DNA of 34,750 bases from an uncultured virus (IMG/VR IMGVR_UViG_3300022833_000006). Taxonomy: Duplodnaviria > Heunggongvirae > Uroviricota > Caudoviricetes > Crassvirales. The notes under the pieces are model-generated. The model saw only the letters and a program-made list of their open reading frames with translations, was not told the origin of the DNA and ran no database searches. Made by a program: the position numbers and the translations under genes. This document shows, one piece after another, positions 4,946 through 28,859 of the stretch; within the stretch, counting starts at the first letter, position 1; each line of letters begins with the position of its first letter. The stretch is taken from IMG/VR virus record IMGVR_UViG_3300022833_000006, one strand, 5' to 3'.

Positions 4946-5621
4946 TGTTTTCTTTTATTAATTCGTTAATTTGTTTAAAATGATTACAATTCCATTCTTC
5001 ATTTCGTTTTGCAGCAAGTTCAGGATGTATACATTTTAAAGCATAACAAAATTTTAATTTGTTTTCTGGAACAACTTTGTGAAAAGTTCTCATAACATCG
5101 TTTCCCCATAAACAAAATATTACACCTGGATTATTATCTATAATAGTATTAATAGTAACTTTAATAAATTCATCCCAAATATGCTTGTGTGGATTTACCA
5201 TACCTGCTTGAATAGTTAATGATGTATTTAACAATAAAACATTTTGTAAAGCCCAATTTTGCAAAGTTACATCAAAATCAACAATTAAAGTATTAGTAGT
5301 TTTTTCTATACATTCTCTTATTTTAAATAAAGAAGGTGACACCCTAAGTGTATCAACTGTATTTGCTACAGCAAAGCCGTTTGCTGATTCATTAGGGTAA
5401 GGAGAATCTCCTAATATCACCACTTTAATATTATTATAAGGGACATATCTAAAAACTTTAAATATATCTTTTTTTAAAGGAAATATTTGTCTTTTATTAT
5501 AAACTTGGTTTAAAAAAACAATAAGTTTTCTAAAATAATCTGATTTAATTATATATAGAAAACTTTCATCATTAACCCAGTTACCAAAAGTTTTTTTAAA
5601 ATTAATAATATCCTTATTCAT
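4917..5621 (-). CDS. ung: Uracil-DNA glycosylase family 1-like protein (variant active-site motif)
   Basis: KVVILGDSPYP, PSL, WALQNVLLLNTSLT, LWG, HP, CNHF motifs. Confidence 0.85.
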   Translation of the reverse strand: MNKDIINFKKTFGNWVNDESFLYIIKSDYFRKLIVFLNQVYNKRQIFPLKKDIFKVFRYVPYNNIKVVILGDSPYPNESANGFAVANTVDTLRVSPSLFKIRECIEKTTNTLIVDFDVTLQNWALQNVLLLNTSLTIQAGMVNPHKHIWDEFIKVTINTIIDNNPGVIFCLWGNDVMRTFHKVVPENKLKFCYALKCIHPELAAKRNEEWNCNHFKQINELIKENNGKEFCIKW

Positions 5622-7128
5622 CTACAGTATTTGTAAAATCATCATAAAATTTATGTTCATTAAGACCTTTAGGGTCATTAATATTCATTTTTTTCATAAC
5701 TTTAACTCTTTCTTTAAAATATTTTATATTATTTTCACAAAGAGAATCTGTAAGTTCTGGGAATTCACTTTTAGTAAGTTTTACTAATGTTTCATATTTA
5801 CTATTTAATTTACTAAAAGATTTTAAAAATTTAGGATTATTAAATTTATCTTCTAATTTGTTAGCTGCCATAACCATTATTGCTGAACTTAACATAAAAT
5901 TGTAAATTTTAAAAAAGTCAAAAGTATTATTATGTTGTCTAAATTCTACAGTTTGTTTGTTAGTAAATATAATAGGAATCATGTTAAACCATACGTAACG
6001 ACTTCTAATGTTCCATTTAGATGTACCATTAGGGTCTTTAGGATGATTTTGTATTTTTTCTAAATCATTACCAAAATCTGAAAATGAATATCCACCAGAT
6101 AAATGCTTAAATAAACTATCAAAAGCTAATTTTTTAAGTTTAGGTAAAGGTTTATCTGTGTCAGACATCATAATACTTAAAGGAGTACAATTCATTGGAC
6201 CACTGTAATTTTTATTTTTACCGTAATCAGTAGAAATTTTTTTAGACAATGGTTGTAAAGAATACATATCTTCTTCTAGCATATTTGCTATATTATTTAT
6301 AGATAAAATATTGTCAACATCTCTTTTAAGACCTCCTAAATGTAAATGTAAAGCACATGTAAAATCATAATCAGTTCTTTTTTTTAATAATTTACATATT
6401 TCCATTACATTATATAAACCTTTTCTACCATCTAAAGGAACTGTAACATATTCTAAACCTGATATACTACCATCTCTTAATGCTACTATACCGTGTTTAT
6501 AACACAATCTATCAGGTAAATAACCTTTTGAAGTTTCAAATTCAAGACCAAAAGTTATTTTATTTTTTTCTAATAAAATACCTAATTCTTCTACCATTTG
6601 ATTTTTAACACTAGGAACTTTGTAATACTGATTATATGATTTTTCAATCATTTTAGTTACAAATCTACTATCGTAGTTTAACGAATTTTTATCTACAGGT
6701 GCTTTTCCTATTTTATTAAAAGAAGATTTTGACATTTCATCTTTTTTATAAAAATTACCTGTATTTAAATGTTCAGAATACTTACTACCTAATGTTTCTT
6801 CATCTATACAATTAGTTACATTAAAATTGTCTACAACAACTTTTATGTTTTTAGTAGGATTAGGTGAAAAAAATCCTAATATAAAAGAATCATCTTTATT
6901 TATACTTACTATACCCCTTGTTAAAAGTTGTTTATTTACTAAAACGTAAGATTTATTTTCATGATCAAATTCAATAAGACCATTATTAAATCTATGATAT
7001 CTACCGTTTACTTTGTAACATCCACCACTTCCTTCTATGTTGTTATCACCTATTTCGTAATAATCATTTTGTATTTTACGACATTTACTTTTTTCTAAAT
7101 TCTTACCTTTGTAAGTTTTAACTATCAT
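5614..7128 (-). CDS. Putative amidoligase (COOH-NH2 ligase fold)
   Basis: TFGLEFET, DGSI..LEYVT.PL, CALHLHLG, RY.WFN, TVEFRQH motifs. Confidence 0.85.
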   Translation of the reverse strand: MIVKTYKGKNLEKSKCRKIQNDYYEIGDNNIEGSGGCYKVNGRYHRFNNGLIEFDHENKSYVLVNKQLLTRGIVSINKDDSFILGFFSPNPTKNIKVVVDNFNVTNCIDEETLGSKYSEHLNTGNFYKKDEMSKSSFNKIGKAPVDKNSLNYDSRFVTKMIEKSYNQYYKVPSVKNQMVEELGILLEKNKITFGLEFETSKGYLPDRLCYKHGIVALRDGSISGLEYVTVPLDGRKGLYNVMEICKLLKKRTDYDFTCALHLHLGGLKRDVDNILSINNIANMLEEDMYSLQPLSKKISTDYGKNKNYSGPMNCTPLSIMMSDTDKPLPKLKKLAFDSLFKHLSGGYSFSDFGNDLEKIQNHPKDPNGTSKWNIRSRYVWFNMIPIIFTNKQTVEFRQHNNTFDFFKIYNFMLSSAIMVMAANKLEDKFNNPKFLKSFSKLNSKYETLVKLTKSEFPELTDSLCENNIKYFKERVKVMKKMNINDPKGLNEHKFYDDFTNTVDE

Positions 7129-7154
7129 TTCATTTTATTTTTTTAATGTTAACT

Positions 7155-9275
7155 CTATTGGTTAAATTTGTTGTTTCTATTAATAAATTCCATTTCATCT
7201 TCATCAAAATATTCATCATCATCATTTTTTATTTCTTTTGAATTTAAAATATTATCAATCCATTTACTTAACGGATTATAAACACCTTCTAAATTTTCGC
7301 AAAAATTAAAAACATTAGTTGCTAATTCATTGTTATCAGAATATTTACTAACAAAATCTATTCCTAAATCTAAAGATTCTTTTATTGAAGTGTTAAAATC
7401 ATCTAATGCAACTTTCATGTCGTCATTTTCGTCTTCAAATTCGTCAACATTTGAATAATCTATACCTGATTCATAATCTTGAAAATCTTCTTCAAATTTA
7501 TTATTTTTATTAACAAGTTTATTTATATTTTTTTCAAAACTTTTGTCTTCAAAATAAGCATTGTCAATAACTTTTTTATTACTTAAAATTATTTTATTAT
7601 TTTTTATACTATTAAAAATATGATTATAAAAACTAGCAACACAAATACCTTTTCTTATACTATAAATATAAGTAGAACCTATTGCTTGTACAGATTCACT
7701 TTGTACTACTTTTCCTTTTCTTAAAATTTTATTTTTAAATAAATGAGCATTAAATTCTAATAAATCTTCTTTTTTATTTTTTAAAAATGAATTTTCATAA
7801 TAAGAAGTTATAGGATAAACACTCATGTGCGAATATTCTTCAAGAGTAAAGTTTTCTGATCCTTTATAATTAATAGTTTCATAATCTAATTCAGTAAGTA
7901 ACATAATACCATTAACTATGTAAAACAAAGTTAAATCAACTTTTCCTAAAACAATATTTTTAGAATTAACTTTATCAAAAAATGAAAAATTATTAATTAA
8001 ATTTTTAGCTTCATGTATTAAATTACTAACATATATAAAACCATTATTTTCACTATAAACATAAATACCATCTTTAACAAGCTCGTTGTTTTGTTTATAT
8101 CTAAAATTTTCAAAAATAACTTTATTATAATTAACCATTTCTTTGCTCCTAATTATTTTCTCATAAAAAATACTTTTTCCAATTTTACTTTCTAAAGGTG
8201 AAATAACATTTTGAATATCATTTGGTATTTTATTTGCACTAATAAATAATTTAGAATTAACAGGTGGTTGTTTTGATTTATAAACAACTAAATTTTTTAC
8301 TGATTTATTGTTATTTTTAGTTTTATCAACATTTTTTCTGTTTTTTTCTTCTTTTTTACGATTAAATTCATACATTGAATCGTATTTTTCATTTTTAGTT
8401 CTATCAATATTAAACAAAGCTTCAATTACACCATTTTTTATTTTATAAAGTATATTTGTTTCAAAAGTATATATATTAGAATCTTTTTCAGTATGTCTTT
8501 TACCTGATATAAGCTCTAAAGGAGCTACTGTAGAAGAATAATATATACTATTTTTAGATTCTTGCCAATAATGCAATGGTCTTTCTTCTTCAGCAACACT
8601 AGTATTATATTCCCATTTTTTAGATTTACCTCTAAATACAAAAACAGTTTCTTTTTCTTTTTGTGAATGTAAAACCAATGCAGCAGCACCTTTGTAATCT
8701 TGTAAAACTTTTATATAATCAGGTTTTTTTACATTAGCTTTAGATATTATTTCTAATAAAATTTCACTATCTACTTTTTCTCTATGTTTATCATCTTTAA
8801 GATTTACTTCATATTTTTCAGCTAAAAATTTGTGATTATCTAAAGTTCCGTTATGAGCACCTATAAAATTAAAACCATCACCAATATCAAACATAAAAGG
8901 ATGTGTATTATTTACACTTTTAATACCTCCTCTTGATGCATTTCTAGTGTGACCTATAATTACGTTACCTACTTTTTTTTTGTACTTTTGGATACTTTCA
9001 TTAATAAATAAATTTCTAAATAAAGCTTCATTGTTTGTACCAATACTGTCACCTTTATGTAATTTTTCATTTATATATAAACCACAAGAATTAGTACCTC
9101 TTTCTTCATTTAAAACACCTAATATTTTAAGTTTATCCATATCAAATGAAGATGGATTTTCACCAGTCCATCCAAATAATCCACAACTAAAAACATCTTT
9201 TTTTTGTGTTTTACTAAAAATGTTTAATAGCATTTGCATAATTAACATTATAATTACTATATTAAATATTAACAT
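7155..9275 (-). CDS. Class II glutamine amidotransferase (Ntn hydrolase) with leader and long C-terminal region
   Basis: CGLFG, RG.NSCG, IGHTRNAS, NTHPF, AHNGTL, VDSE, ERPL motifs. Confidence 0.88.
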   Translation of the reverse strand: MLIFNIVIIMLIMQMLLNIFSKTQKKDVFSCGLFGWTGENPSSFDMDKLKILGVLNEERGTNSCGLYINEKLHKGDSIGTNNEALFRNLFINESIQKYKKKVGNVIIGHTRNASRGGIKSVNNTHPFMFDIGDGFNFIGAHNGTLDNHKFLAEKYEVNLKDDKHREKVDSEILLEIISKANVKKPDYIKVLQDYKGAAALVLHSQKEKETVFVFRGKSKKWEYNTSVAEEERPLHYWQESKNSIYYSSTVAPLELISGKRHTEKDSNIYTFETNILYKIKNGVIEALFNIDRTKNEKYDSMYEFNRKKEEKNRKNVDKTKNNNKSVKNLVVYKSKQPPVNSKLFISANKIPNDIQNVISPLESKIGKSIFYEKIIRSKEMVNYNKVIFENFRYKQNNELVKDGIYVYSENNGFIYVSNLIHEAKNLINNFSFFDKVNSKNIVLGKVDLTLFYIVNGIMLLTELDYETINYKGSENFTLEEYSHMSVYPITSYYENSFLKNKKEDLLEFNAHLFKNKILRKGKVVQSESVQAIGSTYIYSIRKGICVASFYNHIFNSIKNNKIILSNKKVIDNAYFEDKSFEKNINKLVNKNNKFEEDFQDYESGIDYSNVDEFEDENDDMKVALDDFNTSIKESLDLGIDFVSKYSDNNELATNVFNFCENLEGVYNPLSKWIDNILNSKEIKNDDDEYFDEDEMEFINRNNKFNQ

Positions 9276-10089
9276 ATTCTTTTATTTTGTATTTTTCAAT
9301 TAATTCATTTACGTTTTCAATTTCTAAATCTGATTCAGGATTAATATAATTTAATATATCTTTTCTTAAATCTTCATTAGAAATTTCAAGTTCTTCTGCC
9401 ATTTTGACAGCCATAACGGAACGATCCCATACGTTTAATATACTATCATCACTTTTTAAAAAGTAACCACCTAAAGACCTACATTCTATTCCGTAATCTT
9501 TATCTCTACAATCCCCGATTTTACCATATAATGATCTGCGATTATGATCATCATTATCTTCTAATATTAAAGGTAATGATACAGCTAATTCAAACATCAT
9601 ACATAATCTATCTCTTTCATCTTCTGTTGGGTTGTCCCACCCATAATGAATGTGAAAACCAGAAGATCTCATAGTTAATTCTGATGTGTCTTCTTCTGCA
9701 ATATCTGAAGAACATTCAGTTATTGCGTTATAAGAAGGTGAACATCCAAAAACATGAGCTTTAGGATCAAGAAGTAATTCTTCAGTAGCAATTTCACTAC
9801 TTGAATAATGAAGTTCCATACCTAAAGGTGCTACAAACATTTCAATGTAAGATTTAGCATAATTTATTGAATTTAAAAATTCTTCTCTTGTTTTACAAGG
9901 TGGAATATTAAATTCAGCAAGTATATTATCTTCTTGAACAAAACAACCTGTTCCTATATCAAGAGGATCGTTTTTACCTGCATTAAAAACTCCAATAATA
10001 GAAGCTAATTCTTTAGTTTCAAAATCTCTAACAAATACTTCTGGATCAGATCCAATAGTAAGATTATTGTAATTATATTTATTATTCAT
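9262..10089 (-). CDS. phiEco32-like COOH-NH2 ligase type 2
   Basis: TIGSDPEVF, QEDNILAEFNIPP, FGCSPSYNA, RSSGFHIHYG, RRSLYGK.G..R.K.YGIECRSL. Confidence 0.9.
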   Translation of the reverse strand: MNNKYNYNNLTIGSDPEVFVRDFETKELASIIGVFNAGKNDPLDIGTGCFVQEDNILAEFNIPPCKTREEFLNSINYAKSYIEMFVAPLGMELHYSSSEIATEELLLDPKAHVFGCSPSYNAITECSSDIAEEDTSELTMRSSGFHIHYGWDNPTEDERDRLCMMFELAVSLPLILEDNDDHNRRSLYGKIGDCRDKDYGIECRSLGGYFLKSDDSILNVWDRSVMAVKMAEELEISNEDLRKDILNYINPESDLEIENVNELIEKYKIKEYVNI

Positions 10090-10090
10090 A

Positions 10091-10738
10091 TTATAGTAAT
10101 TTGTCTATTAAATTATAACAATAGTTTTTAAATTCTAATGTTGAATGATTAAACTCTGGATGTCCTTGTATAGCAAGGCTATTTGTATTTTTATAATACA
10201 CTATTTCACACTCTTTAAAATTTTTATCTAATAAAATTTCTTGATCATTACCATTAAGATATTTTTCAGATAAAATATCTTGAGAAATTCCTATTATATC
10301 ATAATTATCTTTATTAAGATTAAATGGATACATCATTTGATGATGGGTAGAAGTTACTTCAAAAATATTATTTTCAATATCAACAACATTGTGACTTCTA
10401 CTGTGACCAGTAATATGTTGTATTAATTTACCACCACTCATTACAGTTAAAAACTGTGAACCTCTACATATACCAACTTTTAATACATGAGGAGCTAAAG
10501 AATTAAATGCTTCTTCTTCTAACGTATCTCTTTTAGCGTTAATATAAGTATTAGAACCTAATTGTTCATCATAATAAATAGGGTTAACATCTTCTCCACC
10601 AGTAAATAAAGCAATGCTTATATCTTCTTCAGAAGAATCTTCTGTTATTACAATTTCATATTTATTACTAAAAAATTCTAAATATTGATTAGTAAGATAT
10701 GCATATAATGTAAATATTTTAATTTTTTCTTTTTTCAT
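10091..10738 (-). CDS. Class I glutamine amidotransferase-like / peptidase C26 family
   Basis: FTGGEDVNP..Y, RD..E, GICRGSQ, STHHQMM, QGHPE. Confidence 0.9.
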   Translation of the reverse strand: MKKEKIKIFTLYAYLTNQYLEFFSNKYEIVITEDSSEEDISIALFTGGEDVNPIYYDEQLGSNTYINAKRDTLEEEAFNSLAPHVLKVGICRGSQFLTVMSGGKLIQHITGHSRSHNVVDIENNIFEVTSTHHQMMYPFNLNKDNYDIIGISQDILSEKYLNGNDQEILLDKNFKECEIVYYKNTNSLAIQGHPEFNHSTLEFKNYCYNLIDKLL

Positions 10739-11489
10739 TTTCTATTCTATTTAATAATGTGTTAATAATTCCAATTGCAACAAATGGGTTAAATCTTTCT
10801 TCTGGGTGAGATTGTTCTGCAGCAATAGGTAATTCTTTGTGAATCATAAATTCTATATTTTTATGTTTGACATCATAAGCTAATGGTAAAAAATCATTAG
10901 ATAAATTGTCTATAAAAATAGCTTGATGATGTATAGAATTTGTTTTAAATTTTCGTGGAACATTATTTACATAATTTAATCTATCTTTTTTAGAAGAAAT
11001 AAGTATTTCACCTAAATAATCTTTTGGAAAATTATCAATAACTGTTTCTAAATCATCTACTAATTCACCTCTCCAAGTAGTAGATCTATCATTGTGAACA
11101 TGTTGATTTAAACTTCCACCAAAGTGGACATTTAAATTTTGAAAACCTGCACAAATACCATAAATTGCTGTTTTATTTTGTTTAGCACGTTCAATATACC
11201 CATTAATAGCACCAAGATTTACATCATAAAATGATTCATATTCCATATCAGGATTATCAGTCATATAATGTGGTTTTTGACCATATCGTAAAGGATTAAC
11301 GTCACGTCCACCTGGTAATATTAATAAATCTACTGGTAATATAGTTTCATTTGCAGCATCTATTATAACTACATCTGCATCAAAACTTCTTGCAAAGTGT
11401 ACGTAAGCTGCATTTTGACCATAACCTGGTTGATATTTACCAGTATGATTATGACCTAATATTCCAATTAACGTTTTTGTTTTTGACAT
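10719..11489 (-). CDS. Class I glutamine amidotransferase-like / peptidase C26 family (second copy)
   Basis: LPGGRDVNPLRYG, GICAGFQ.LNV.FGG, NSIHHQA, QSHPE. Confidence 0.9.
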   Translation of the reverse strand: MSKTKTLIGILGHNHTGKYQPGYGQNAAYVHFARSFDADVVIIDAANETILPVDLLILPGGRDVNPLRYGQKPHYMTDNPDMEYESFYDVNLGAINGYIERAKQNKTAIYGICAGFQNLNVHFGGSLNQHVHNDRSTTWRGELVDDLETVIDNFPKDYLGEILISSKKDRLNYVNNVPRKFKTNSIHHQAIFIDNLSNDFLPLAYDVKHKNIEFMIHKELPIAAEQSHPEERFNPFVAIGIINTLLNRIENEKRKN

Positions 11490-11491
11490 TT

Positions 11492-12376
11492 TTATTTATT
11501 TAAAGTTTTATATTTATTTTTAAGCATTACTGGTATATGTTTAATATAAGTTTCTTCTGTTATATCTCCAAATGATGGAGCAGAATTAATTTCTACAATA
11601 ATAAAATCTGGATTTTCATTAATATTACCATTTCTATCTGTAGAACTTTGTATTCTAAGATCAATTGCACCAAAATCTAAACCTGTTGAATTAAGAGCTT
11701 TTACGCATTCATCAATTATAGATTGCCAATTACTAGGCTTATCAAAAGCTTCGTTATTTTCAAGAATCCATACACAATTATCATCATTTCTATACCACTT
11801 ATTTTCTTCAGGAGTATCTCTTTTCATCATTTTACGACAAGTATAAAAACATCCATTTGCATCAACGTGAAGTCTATATTCTCTTGAGTAATTATAATAA
11901 CGTTCAAAAATGCGATTTTCTAAATTGACACCTGAACGTAAATAATTTCTAATTTCATCAATAGTTTTAAGTAAAGTATTACCTTGACCTCTACTACCAT
12001 ATAATGATTTAGCAACTAATGGTAATGGCATATCTTCTAAAGAAACTGTTATTATTTCAGCTTTTGTTTGCAATAAAAAATTATTATTATCATTACTACA
12101 TCTATACCAATCTGCTGATTTAACACTTGGTTGTGCGTTTTGAAAACAATTTTTCATGCGAAGTTTACTACTACTATTACGAATTGCATCAACAGTATTT
12201 AATTCTAATCTATCACCTCCATTTGCAATAGTGTCTTTACATTCAGTACTAGAACCTAATCTTACTACTGAACGAAATGGTAATAATTCAATTGTCTTAT
12301 TATTTCTTCTAAGATTAGTGTGAGAAGGATGCCTACTGTATATTACAGGACGAAATTTTGTATATTTATTTTTCAT
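11492..12376 (-). CDS. ATP-grasp ligase (RimK/YheC-like)
   Basis: PLVAK...GSRGQG, REYRLHV, GLDFGAID, IVEINSAPS. Confidence 0.9.
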   Translation of the reverse strand: MKNKYTKFRPVIYSRHPSHTNLRRNNKTIELLPFRSVVRLGSSTECKDTIANGGDRLELNTVDAIRNSSSKLRMKNCFQNAQPSVKSADWYRCSNDNNNFLLQTKAEIITVSLEDMPLPLVAKSLYGSRGQGNTLLKTIDEIRNYLRSGVNLENRIFERYYNYSREYRLHVDANGCFYTCRKMMKRDTPEENKWYRNDDNCVWILENNEAFDKPSNWQSIIDECVKALNSTGLDFGAIDLRIQSSTDRNGNINENPDFIIVEINSAPSFGDITEETYIKHIPVMLKNKYKTLNK

Positions 12377-12842
12377 TATATTTTTTATAATATTTGTTTA
12401 AATTTTCTAAATTTGCAAATTTGTGTTTAAAACCAGTTTGTTCAATTCTTTCCGCTGAATGCCATGATGTACTACCTATTCTTTTTAAAAAAGGAAAATT
12501 TTCATCTTTATCTGTTGACACACTACTATTAAAAACTATACCTGATACATGAAAACAATACCATAAATTAATAGCTGTTTCTTCACAATCAACTAAACTA
12601 AAAACTATACTTAAATAACGTTTCCAAGTTAAAGATGTATATTCAGTTTTAAGAATACAATAAACTTCATAAATAGTTCTATATTTACTTCTGCGACATT
12701 GAATTTCTGTAAATTTTTTATCGTTATAAGTATTAGGTCTATTTTTTAAAAGATCAATTATATAAGATTTAGCAGATTTTCTTCTTTTAGAACGAGAATA
12801 TATTAATTTAGTTTCTATAATCGGCATAATCTCCAGATTCAA
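12366..12842 (-). CDS. Hypothetical protein
   Basis: ORF track; overlaps both neighbours in the operon. Confidence 0.65.
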   Translation of the reverse strand: MNLEIMPIIETKLIYSRSKRRKSAKSYIIDLLKNRPNTYNDKKFTEIQCRRSKYRTIYEVYCILKTEYTSLTWKRYLSIVFSLVDCEETAINLWYCFHVSGIVFNSSVSTDKDENFPFLKRIGSTSWHSAERIEQTGFKHKFANLENLNKYYKKYNEK

Positions 12843-13194
12843 TTAATGTTTTACCTTCGTTTTCACCAAAGTAAATAGAAGCTTTTACATCTTCTCCTGT
12901 ATCAAGAGTTATTTCAATAGGTGTTCTTTTATACCAAGAACCTTCATGATCTCTAGGATCATAACCTTCTAATCTATCTACTGTAGGTAATTGATCAGGT
13001 GTAACTGAATAAACTTCTACTCTAATTTTACTAACTTGCTCGTTAGGATTAACAAAAGGAATACCATTTGCTGTCAATTTATATTTATTTTTAGTCCATC
13101 CAGCACCAATTAATTTTGAATTACCCAATACTCTGTGATTTCCATAACCAGTTCTTAATGTTCCGTAAACACTAATGTTTATATTTTTACTCAT
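12808..13194 (-). CDS. Gamma-glutamylcyclotransferase (AIG2-like)
   Basis: VYGTLRTGYGNH, EVY.V, DRLEGY, Y.R, SGDY. Confidence 0.92.
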   Translation of the reverse strand: MSKNINISVYGTLRTGYGNHRVLGNSKLIGAGWTKNKYKLTANGIPFVNPNEQVSKIRVEVYSVTPDQLPTVDRLEGYDPRDHEGSWYKRTPIEITLDTGEDVKASIYFGENEGKTLIESGDYADYRN

Positions 13195-25233: not shown

Positions 25234-25411
25234 TTTATTTTATTTTTTATTTAGATAAAAGCTCACATAATATATGCAAGCCTTATCAATTGCAATGTAC
25301 TACACTTTTGATACATAACCTTTCCCAAATCTATAAAAGTGTTAAAAACTTTGGATGATGTTATATTTGCCAGATATCCTGCTGGCGCAGCTTTTTAGAC
25401 GGCGAAGTCTG

Positions 25412-25855
25412 TGGAGCTGAGGGGAGTCGAACCCCTGTCCCAACAATTTGATTATTAATAAATTATACAGTTTTTCAATTTATAGTTTTCTTCTACACTA
25501 GTTACTCATACTAAATTAACTTATCATACAGCTTCACTATACTAATGTACTTCGGGTCTATCTGGACATACCAGAATATCAAGCATCCTGTGATAAGTTA
25601 CTACATAATGGTTACTACGATGCTTTTTTCACCATTGGCATTATGCTGCCATTGCTAACTTAACTGTTGCAACTGGTGCAACTAGATCGTCAGATCCGTT
25701 AAGAATGTTGTGAACAACACTCATGTTAGCTACTTCCTGTGCAGTTTCCTGCGTACTCATTGTATTTCCGTTTAGAAATTTCACCTACGATATTTAAAGT
25801 GATCACTCACTACTGTTTATTAATATTTACACTGCGGTCAAAACCAGTCAGCCCC
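25412..25855 (-). ncRNA. ssrA: tmRNA
   Basis: 5' GGGGCTGACTGGTTTTGAC, 3' GGACAGGGGTTCGACTCCCCTCAGCTCCA; acceptor with G3-U70 and discriminator A; internal tag frame ending LAMAA*. Confidence 0.95.
25641..25769 (-). other. tmRNA tag reading frame, 42 aa
   Basis: TAAAC|GGA resume context; GNTMSTQETAQEVANMSVVHNILNGSDDLVAPVATVKLAMAA-TAA. Confidence 0.75.
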
Positions 25856-27259: not shown

Positions 27260-27403
27260 TTACTCTTTTAAAAAAATATAATGTATACTTTTATTATAAG
27301 TAACACTATTAATTATTAAATAGTTATTTTTAATAAGATTTTGTACAACAACATCATCAGCATTTGAGCCAATATATGTCATTGAAATTACTTTTTCATC
27401 CAT
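27260..27403 (-). CDS. Small hypothetical protein (47 aa)
   Basis: MDEKVISMTYIGSNADDVVVQNLIKNNYL...; manual translation. Confidence 0.5.
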   Translation of the reverse strand: MDEKVISMTYIGSNADDVVVQNLIKNNYLIINSVTYNKSIHYIFLKE

Positions 27404-27461
27404 TCTATTATTATTTAGTATAGTTAATTTTTAATTAAATATAAAGTATATGCTTAAAAAC

Positions 27462-27492
27462 TTGCATATGTCATTTATTTCTTGTAACTTTG
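27462..27492 (+). promoter_or_regulatory. Bacteroidota housekeeping-sigma promoter, antisense to flanking genes
   Basis: TTG (27462)-N20-TAACTTTG (27485-27492); same layout as the promoter at 34070. Confidence 0.65.
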
Positions 27493-27577
27493 TGTATTGT
27501 TAAGTTACAATGAATTGACATCCTCTACATTCGTCTTTGTTAATAGGATAATATTTGAAGGGTAACGGGTATTTATA

Positions 27578-27618
27578 AAAGGGTTAGGGAAACTTTGTAG
27601 TCTCCTCTAACCCTTTCT
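27578..27618. terminator. Terminator-like hairpin, possibly bidirectional
   Basis: AAAGGGTTAG...CTAACCCTTT inverted repeat with A run before and T/C run after. Confidence 0.6.
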
Positions 27619-27639
27619 CAGTTTAACCACTAACCAATA

Positions 27640-27873
27640 TTATCTCTTCATATTATAATCTTCTATGTTTGGATACTTAAACGTATACCAATTAAGCTTA
27701 CTAGGTTTCATCATTGTAGAATGTGAATGTACAAAACGTTTAAGACTTCTATTATTAATCCATTTATGTATTATTCTATCTATTTTACAACTTCTTTCAA
27801 GTTGATATATGAAATAACCTGTTATTAATAATATTACAACGAATATTATTGTTATTAATTGAAAATTGTTCAT
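27640..27873 (-). CDS. Small membrane-anchored hypothetical protein
   Basis: N-terminal hydrophobic helix. Confidence 0.65.
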   Translation of the reverse strand: MNNFQLITIIFVVILLITGYFIYQLERSCKIDRIIHKWINNRSLKRFVHSHSTMMKPSKLNWYTFKYPNIEDYNMKR

Positions 27874-27896
27874 ATTTTTGTTTTTTTGTATTAATA

Positions 27897-27947
27897 ATTT
27901 ACACTCTGCATTTACAGGCTTGTGACTGTCTTTGGCTGCATTAAAAT
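27897..27947 (-). ncRNA. Twister self-cleaving ribozyme (type P1)
   Basis: ATTT-TAA-TGCA-GC-CAAAG-ACAG-TCACAAGC-CTGT-AAA-TGCA-GA-GTG-T-AAAT: P1, P2, P4, pseudoknots CAC/GTG and GC/GC, conserved UAA and GA. Confidence 0.88.
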
Positions 27948-28084
27948 CCTTTATATTTAAAACATAAAGGATTTTTATATTTATAATTATTTTATTATAT
28001 CTTATTTAGTCTGGGCTATATCAGACTACGCCTTTTAATTTATCTCCTAACATTTTTTATTGTAATTTAACTCTATAACTTTAC

Positions 28085-28155
28085 AGCCACTAGGATTTGC
28101 ACCTACAATTTTGGGGTAGTAACCCAACGAGTTTTACTTTTTACTACAATAAGTT
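28085..28155 (-). pseudogene. Degenerate tRNA-like remnant
   Basis: TTGGG-TTACTAC-CCCAA hairpin followed by TAGG-TGCAAAT-CCTA T arm; acceptor stem does not pair. Confidence 0.45.
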
Positions 28156-28194
28156 TAAGTTTCTTTACGATAGAAATCATCTCTAAATTAATTA

Positions 28195-28449
28195 TTATAT
28201 TACTGATTTGAAATTTTCATGAAAAGACATTGTGTCTATTTGAACATGTTTGTATTTGTAAATATTAGCCCATTTTGCAAATCTTATAAACTCACTTTTT
28301 ACATAATTAAATATATCATTGTAAGTATAATGTTTATTTGCATTAAAAATAAGATCATAAAATTTATGATAAAATACATCAATATCAATGTTCATTTTAA
28401 TAGTTTCTCTTTCTATTTTTCTACGTGTATTTCTAGTAATTTTTTTCAT
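28195..28449 (-). CDS. Hypothetical protein
   Basis: ORF track. Confidence 0.65.
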   Translation of the reverse strand: MKKITRNTRRKIERETIKMNIDIDVFYHKFYDLIFNANKHYTYNDIFNYVKSEFIRFAKWANIYKYKHVQIDTMSFHENFKSVI

Positions 28450-28628
28450 AATTTGTTTCTTTTGTTTCTTGCAGATTTAGATATATAATTATATTTATCT
28501 GCAAAAGATTCATTTTTCTTATTAAAAGAGTCAATTCTTGTTCTTACATCAAAATTTAAATTTACTATTTCTGGAAAACATCCAAATATACCATTGTATA
28601 TAAAATAAGAAACTATTATTAATTTCAT
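28446..28628 (-). CDS. Hypothetical protein ending in TGA (ATGA overlap)
   Basis: ORF track; starts just after the previous stop and its TGA overlaps the next ATG. Confidence 0.55.
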   Translation of the reverse strand: MKLIIVSYFIYNGIFGCFPEIVNLNFDVRTRIDSFNKKNESFADKYNYISKSARNKRNKL

Positions 28629-28631
28629 AAT

Positions 28632-28859
28632 TTATTCTTTTGCAGATTTACCATTAGTAAAACCTCTGTTGTAACCATCTTGATAATTATCAGATGATTC
28701 AGGTAATACAGGTATAGGAGTAACTGGTACTACTGGCTTTATACAATTTTGCACTTCAAAACAATAACCTGCTACATAACCATCTTCAAATCCTTCTTCA
28801 AACTTCGTTGTAAATATCATTGTTAACAATAATATTGATAATATTAATAATGTTTTCAT
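28632..28859 (-). CDS. Small secreted/membrane protein
   Basis: Signal-like N-terminus; GFEDGYVAGYC and YQDGYNRGF repeats; Pro-rich linker. Confidence 0.7.
   Translation of the reverse strand: MKTLLILSILLLTMIFTTKFEEGFEDGYVAGYCFEVQNCIKPVVPVTPIPVLPESSDNYQDGYNRGFTNGKSAKE

Follow-up and report, generated by a model that had tools for sequence, protein, structure and literature searches.

The closest described system to the locus reported here is the type-P1 twister ribozyme (Rfam RF03160; Roth et al. 2014) in its form without auxiliary stems, which in the published accounts cited here runs from P1 through a U/A cut near the 5' end, P2, a GCC motif, P4, a loop L4 of the form GU-NNC-AAGC, an A-rich linker, the returning strand of P2 and GAG-NN to the returning strand of P1, with two pseudoknots, T1 of 3 bp and T2 of 2 bp. 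Twisters without auxiliary stems are treated as a recognised form in PMC5408937 and PMC11662667 alike. The catalytic A and G are given as A7 and G45 in the O. sativa twister and as A6 and G48 in the env22 twister (PMC5408937), and both catalytic residues are placed in L1 (PMC11662667). P1 itself is described as dispensable in vitro, with P1-less twisters cleaving at almost the wild-type rate, and the same article cites an engineered P1-less 'mini-twister' that cuts off a single nucleotide (Kosutic et al. 2015, via PMC5408937). According to PMC11662667, twisters without auxiliary stems have a mean cleaved fraction f of 0.85, those bearing the optional P0/L0 element cleave less in a high-throughput assay (mean 0.40 vs 0.85), and L1 can accommodate insertions on the downstream side of the 3-bp pseudoknot. 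PMC6765202 carries the proposal, unproven, that bacterial and phage twisters divide polycistronic transcripts into pieces that differ in stability or translation. A search of the literature for twisters in crAss-like or other phage genomes returned only general statements.

The window, by which is meant the whole 34,750-nt stretch of phage DNA that was analysed (25.6% G+C), very probably holds a genuine copy of this known self-cutting RNA at 27947-27898 of the minus strand. The locus adds a new example of a known RNA class and leaves knowledge of the class unchanged; twisters near phage genes, forms lacking P3 and P0 hairpins are all in print already in the sources cited here. It shares with the described type the order of elements from P1 to the returning strand of P1, both pseudoknots and the position of the predicted cut. 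It departs from that type in a T1 of CAC/GUG in place of CCC/GGG, an AU-rich P4, a 3-nt linker, a weak P1 that is predicted to be displaced and a score below the Rfam cut-off. As in twisters with the optional P0, a stable hairpin stands immediately 5' of the ribozyme, but in the window its stem reaches the cut site, overlaps the 5' strand of P1 and bears a terminator-like run of four U. Should this hairpin win over P1, the native RNA would, like the mini-twister, also be without P1; the mini-twister, however, is an engineered RNA that parts with one nucleotide, whereas the window RNA would release a long upstream RNA with a terminal hairpin.

A natural counterpart is found in the crAss-like phage cr6_1 (NC_055894.1, 33641-33680). 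A blastn search with a 901-nt query against 50,697 phage records gave a single match, the 40-nt ribozyme core in cr6_1 at 92.5% identity; there was no other detectable DNA similarity between the two phages in that query, and no syntenic relative among those records. The cr6_1 twister likewise lacks P3 and P5; no genes occupy the stretch around it, and the small genes that follow share its strand. Its T1 is GGC/GCC, doubly compensated relative to the CAC/GUG of the window, and its P1 is longer, at 3+6 bp by eye. A hatchet ribozyme (90.8 bits, L002 4313-4431) stands about 1.8 kb downstream of the cr6_1 twister; the window has none.

Anatomy of the ribozyme core

An earlier, sequence-only reading of this DNA had placed a minimal twister of type P1 at 27897..27947, and its coordinates, strand and anatomy were borne out when RF03160, the Rfam twister-P1 model, aligned end to end (model positions 1-68 of 68) to 27947-27898 of the minus strand. 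The score was 43.6 bits, with an E-value of 1.2e-8 in a 301-nt search and of 1.4e-6 over both strands of the whole 34.75-kb window. The sequence from 27951 to 27896, read on the minus strand, is AAGGAUUUU/AAUGCAGCCAAAGACAGUCACAAGCCUGUAAAUGCAGAGUGUAAAUU, and its parts are as follows.

27898..27947, minus strand: twister core, type P1, without P3 or P5 (RF03160 alignment and custom model)
27944..27948, minus strand: P1 5' strand, GAUUU, shared with the 3' arm of P0
U27943/A27942, minus strand: predicted scissile U/A step, aligned to model U5-A6; A27942 is the putative general acid
27940-27937 with 27910-27907 (27907..27940), minus strand: P2, UGCA/UGCA, enclosing L2, P4 and L4
G27936-C27918 and C27935-G27919, minus strand: T2 pseudoknot, GC/GC (RF03160 alignment)
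27929-27926 with 27917-27914 (27914..27929), minus strand: P4 stem-loop, ACAG/CUGU, with loop L4 = UCACAAGC
C27924-G27902, A27923-U27903 and C27922-G27904, minus strand: T1 pseudoknot, CAC/GUG (RF03160 alignment)
27902..27906, minus strand: GAGUG, in which G27904, U27903 and G27902 are the 3' strand of T1 and G27906 is the putative general base
27896..27900, minus strand: candidate P1 3' strand, AAAUU; U27901 would be bulged (minimum-free-energy fold of a 66-nt stretch)

All the conserved loop nucleotides are kept, namely UAA at the cut, GCC after P2, the GU-NNC-AAGC of L4, the A-rich linker and the GAG before T1. The sole departures from the consensus are two compensated pairs: C41A with G63U in T1, where A27923-U27903 replaces C-G and gives CAC/GUG in place of CCC/GGG, and G37A with C48U in P4, where A-U replaces G-C and leaves that stem with two A-U pairs. 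P2 and P4 have four standard pairs each, and both appear in the unconstrained minimum-free-energy (MFE) fold. Of P3 nothing is left beyond C27934...G27930, which closes AAA, all 16 of its model positions being deleted in the alignment, and the linker from P4 to P2 is shortened from 5 to 3 nt (AAA), as it also is in cr6_1 and in L083. Folded alone with ViennaRNA, the 66-nt stretch is no more stable than its shuffles (z +0.66), in a test to which pseudoknots are invisible.

The cut that had been predicted between U27943 and A27942 agrees with the alignment of this step to U5-A6 of the model, and the distance of 69 nt claimed from the cut to the 27873 gene is exact, the count running from 27942 to the first base of the start codon at 27873. 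By analogy of position, A27942 is likely to act as general acid and G27906 as general base; the latter is proposed because it is the sole unpaired G in L1, where the general base lies (PMC11662667). The description of the ribozyme as minimal stands in so far as no auxiliary stems are present in the alignment, but it does not mark the locus as unusual, this being the recognised form noted above (PMC5408937; PMC11662667, as far as these sources describe it) and CAC/GUG being the commonest T1 in the viral copies listed. The earlier reading overlooked one element, a 15-bp hairpin, predicted to compete with P1, that adjoins the cut site directly.

Score, relatives and covariation

At 43.6 bits the window twister falls below the Rfam gathering cut-off of 67.2 bits for RF03160, which is a curation threshold and not a structural feature, and it is consequently absent from a default Rfam scan, in which a tmRNA was the sole report for the window. 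The same holds for its relatives. All 23 twister matches in 18 related viral loci lie below 67.2 bits, at 43.7-63.3 bits, with the window at the bottom of that range, and the cr6_1 copy does not reach an E-value of 0.01 with the Rfam model; the cut-off thus excludes this whole viral group. A custom model built from viral relatives found a single twister copy in the window, for which the score of 63.5 bits is high by construction, and its runner-up reached 10.7 bits (E 1). No second ribozyme was found in the window, either with this model run with filters off or in an Rfam scan by E-value that covered 4227 families on both strands.

The same core recurs widely. A pattern scan in which P2 and the loop motifs were fixed and P4, T1 and the linkers left free found it in at least 129 viral loci and in at least 136 bacterial or archaeal loci, the latter, among the matches listed, mostly from Clostridia, with Bacteroidota, cyanobacteria and others besides. 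This recurrence agrees with the assignment to type P1 without P3 or P5. The two free positions of T1 form Watson-Crick pairs in 107 of 110 unique viral copies among the matches listed, in eight pair combinations, of which CAC/GUG is the commonest (53/110); the earlier suggestion that CAC/GTG is a compensated pseudoknot, here through A27923-U27903, fits this pattern well.

Covariation was assessed in an alignment of the window with 86 copies without P3, drawn from the 110 unique viral copies. In it, 92.8% of the cells were paired, compared with 73.5% after shuffling and 18-41% when the partners were slid, and P1, P4 and T1 each showed changes on both sides. T1 was 99.2% paired and P4 98.3% paired, three of the four P4 pairs changing on both sides, and P1 was 75.9% paired, with covariation; P2 and T2, which the scan pattern fixes, are uninformative in this test. 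The locus gives no covariation of its own, since its only close relative, the nearest virus record (G001), is identical across it. The ribozyme is also free of variants in contigs from four sequencing runs.

The hairpin at the predicted cut site

Immediately 5' of the core stands the following element.

27943..27975, minus strand: 15-bp AU-rich hairpin with an A-tract, the stem, a UUA loop and a U-tract; it matches the optional P0 and is terminator-like

This hairpin corresponds to the known optional P0 stem of twisters. Its last pair is A27975-U27943, the stem stopping exactly at the scissile U, and its 3' arm includes the 5' strand of P1. The stem is AU-rich, with two C-G pairs; folded alone, 27975-27943 has a free energy of -13.7 kcal/mol, and it is included in the MFE fold. 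The unconstrained MFE structure of 27985-27890 combines P0, P2 and P4 at -19.0 kcal/mol, whereas P1 together with a shortened hairpin reaches only -11.0 kcal/mol, and the full P0 fold is better by 8 kcal/mol. P1 (GAUUU/AAAUU, 5 bp with U27901 bulged) is weak, and in these energy calculations it is predicted to be displaced by the upstream hairpin. A simple terminator scan of 27400-28700 returned no sites; that it missed P0 reflects its demand for at least three G-C pairs, of which P0 has two, and is not evidence against a terminator. In its form (A-tract, stem, U-tract) the hairpin is like the other sites of this phage at which a hairpin is followed by four U.

Among the viral relatives, an upstream helix is common. 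Of 123 unique viral copies among the matches listed, 92 have a stable upstream fold ending within 8 nt of the cut, against 26-43% in control windows shifted by 100-250 nt, and the mean energy of the upstream fold in the viral copies listed is -12.4 kcal/mol against -8.0 and -8.5 kcal/mol. In 99 of 120 viral copies listed, the upstream helix stops 0-6 nt short of the cut. A run of four U on the hairpin is found in only three of the 92 listed, one of them L001, the near-identical record of the window. Pairing of the last four nucleotides before the cut with upstream sequence occurs in the MFE fold of 11 of the 123 relatives listed; P1 forms in 67, and the other 45 are misfolded or mixed. The window combines two unusual traits: its P0 runs into the P1 strand, and that P0 has a terminator-like U4 run.

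Three viral contigs (L062, L077 and L080) present a related arrangement. Their P1 5' strand, UGGUUUA, has two possible partners, an upstream strand containing UAAAC, which would extend P0, or the downstream P1 3' strand UAAACCA. By sequence complementarity this looks like the same choice between alternative partners for the P1 5' strand as in the window. L062 also carries a pistol ribozyme (1015-1081, 59.9 bits) about 480 nt upstream of its twister.

Genomic context

The stretch occurs in eight listed sequencing runs, all of DNA and from salt-lake metagenomes. PHROGs matches were obtained for 20 of the 44 minus-strand ORFs of the window, among them ribonucleotide reductase small subunit, MazG-like pyrophosphatase, exonuclease, RusA-like resolvase, an amidoligase / glutamine amidotransferase cluster, primase, Sak4-like annealing protein, thymidylate synthase and DNA polymerase. 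The cluster is a gene run at 5617-13194 of the minus strand whose members match the PHROGs amidoligase, glutamine amidotransferase (several), COOH-NH2 ligase, ribosomal protein S6 glutaminyl transferase and gamma-glutamyl cyclotransferase, and which adjoins the primase and recombination genes. The ORFs neighbouring the ribozyme are all on the minus strand, and the ribozyme itself sits between an ORF of 84 aa and one of 77 aa, in a spacer of 320 nt that holds no genes.

28449-28195, minus strand: upstream ORF of 84 aa; no PHROG family match
27640..27873, minus strand: downstream ORF of 77 aa with an N-terminal hydrophobic helix; no PHROG match
27577..27617, minus strand: strong terminator-like hairpin with a U4 run, -24.4 kcal/mol, directly after the 77-aa ORF

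The 77-aa ORF, which from its translation would encode a membrane protein, is the target gene in the role considered most likely below; no relatives of the protein were found in viral contigs. Only 29 nt separate the end of T1 from its ATG, and a simple scan showed no promoter-like site on the minus strand between the hairpin and the ATG, which as a negative is weak evidence; taken together, these observations make it probable that transcripts of the 77-aa gene include the ribozyme.

The setting is typical of the relatives. For 126 unique viral copies among the matches listed, the preceding stop codon on the same strand is a median of 35 nt away (n=110) and the next same-strand ORF starting with ATG a median of 51 nt (n=105, mode 20-40 nt). 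These copies are mostly intergenic, 15 of the 126 lying within a same-strand ORF of at least 40 aa; another count places 54 of the 126 within opposite-strand ORFs of at least 40 aa, most of which we take to be spurious. The flanking ORFs of the relatives listed are small, with medians of 75 aa downstream (n=82) and 69 aa upstream (n=81), and the window is alike in this respect. No recurrent downstream gene family emerged: 16 of 75 ORFs match any PHROG, and these matches are diverse, in a check that covered 75 of the 82 downstream ORFs. Several viral contigs (L004, L011, L017, L034, L038, L074, L085, L110 and L119) carry two or three same-strand twisters 0.3-1.3 kb apart, bracketing single small genes.

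Other RNA elements lie nearby. A phage-encoded tmRNA occupies 25409-25855 of the minus strand, 2 kb downstream of the twister (RF00023, 58.1 bits against a cut-off of 47), with the tag peptide ATVKLAMAA* according to ARAGORN. About 135 nt upstream of the twister, 28082-28147 of the minus strand resembles a tRNA, aligning to the full length of the Rfam tRNA model at 17.2 bits (E 0.49 in 286 nt); an anticodon-type arm (UUGGG-UUACUAC-CCCAA) and a T-type arm (UAGG-UGCAAAU-CCUA) are intact, and the acceptor and D arms are degenerate. A functional tRNA at this place was considered and rejected, ARAGORN reporting none at its default setting or at -ps90 and only poor calls at -ps80 and -ps70, and the element is possibly a tRNA relic. 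A short contig of another organism, from one run, matches 28095-28141 with four differences. The same gene-free spacer holds a further hairpin at 28000-28025 of the minus strand (AGUCUG-AUAUAGCC-CAGACU), and the 331-nt spacer folds better than 100 of 100 shuffles (z -2.48). If the twister cuts, a structured leader of about 240 nt, bearing the P0 hairpin at its 3' end, would come free.

Activity, role and rival readings

The reading held here with high confidence is that of a genuine type-P1 twister in the spacer of a minus-strand phage operon, preceded by P0 and predicted to cut the message in two, with the effects proposed as follows. Once RNA polymerase has read through the hairpin, the 45-nt core would fold, and the 2'-OH of U27943 would attack its own 3' phosphate. 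The upstream product would then carry a 2',3'-cyclic phosphate on a blunt terminal hairpin of 15 bp. As the ribozyme lies near the 5' end of its own cut, it would stay on the downstream product, an RNA of about 366 nt with its 5'-OH buried in the pseudoknotted ribozyme, followed by the 77-aa ORF and ending at the terminator 27617-27577. The message of the 77-aa gene would in this way be uncoupled from the upstream transcript, and we infer that the two halves might differ in stability or translation. The most likely role is thus the cutting of a polycistronic phage message just before the gene for the putative membrane protein of 77 aa, in keeping with the proposal in PMC6765202. Activity is favoured by the dispensability of P1 in vitro, the high mean cleavage of twisters lacking auxiliary stems and the tolerance of L1 insertions beyond the pseudoknot; against the reading count the low Rfam score, the two A-U pairs of P4, the AAA linker and a P1 that is predicted not to form. 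Given that the hairpin is predicted to outcompete P1, the window copy probably works like the P1-less mini-twister, and the lower mean cleavage of twisters bearing P0 suggests that it may be slow or conditional.

Should the hairpin terminate transcription efficiently, few transcripts would reach the ribozyme, and this leads to the first alternative, a twister by descent that is inactive or nearly so in its native transcript, whether as a relic or as a conditional element, with the hairpin either trapping U27943 and the P1 5' strand or acting as a terminator. The advantage of 8 kcal/mol of full P0 over P1, with U27943 paired to A27975, is in keeping with this alternative, as are the resemblance of the hairpin to the other terminator-like sites of this phage, the mean f of 0.40 vs 0.85 reported for P0-bearing twisters in PMC11662667 and an Rfam score at the bottom of the range of the 18 related viral loci. 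Yet no catalytic or pseudoknot position has been lost and each departure from the consensus is compensated, which speaks for continued selection; terminal A-U pairs are prone to fraying; P1-less twisters, in the account of PMC5408937, cleave in vitro at near wild-type rate; and with 29 nt between T1 and the ATG, the 77-aa gene probably needs read-through transcripts, which necessarily carry the ribozyme. Inactivity is on balance unlikely. A chance resemblance in AT-rich intergenic DNA, with neither ribozyme ancestry nor ribozyme function, could draw on the score below the gathering cut-off and on the unremarkable, pseudoknot-blind fold of the 66-nt stretch, but is scarcely credible against an E-value of 1.4e-6 for the window, a 40-nt core shared at 92.5% identity with an unrelated crAss-like phage as the sole blastn match of the 901-nt query, the same core in hundreds of loci with T1 and P4 covarying, and a next-best match in the window of 10.7 bits.

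Implications

For the genuine, message-cutting twister preferred here, the noteworthy feature is its terminator-like P0, which extends as far as the cut and is predicted to displace P1. The layout is unusually explicit, with a terminator-like hairpin at the cut, the ribozyme, one small gene and a strong terminator in succession, and the locus is also one more unannotated twister in a large viral group that the default threshold of Rfam misses. It offers a clean test case for the purpose of P0 and for whether natural twisters manage without P1.

A bolder proposal, which we put forward tentatively and regard as possible though doubtful, is that this twister naturally dispenses with P1 and has an intrinsic-terminator hairpin in its stead, the 3' arm of the hairpin leading into the scissile U. 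If true, read-through RNAs would be cut at the same U-tract where termination would end them. Both kinds of RNA, terminated and read-through, would then have the same 3' end protected by the hairpin, and expression of the downstream gene would depend entirely on a message that is capped by the ribozyme and begins with a 5'-OH. P0 would then be both a protector of 3' ends and a surrogate for P1, at least in phages of low G+C content.
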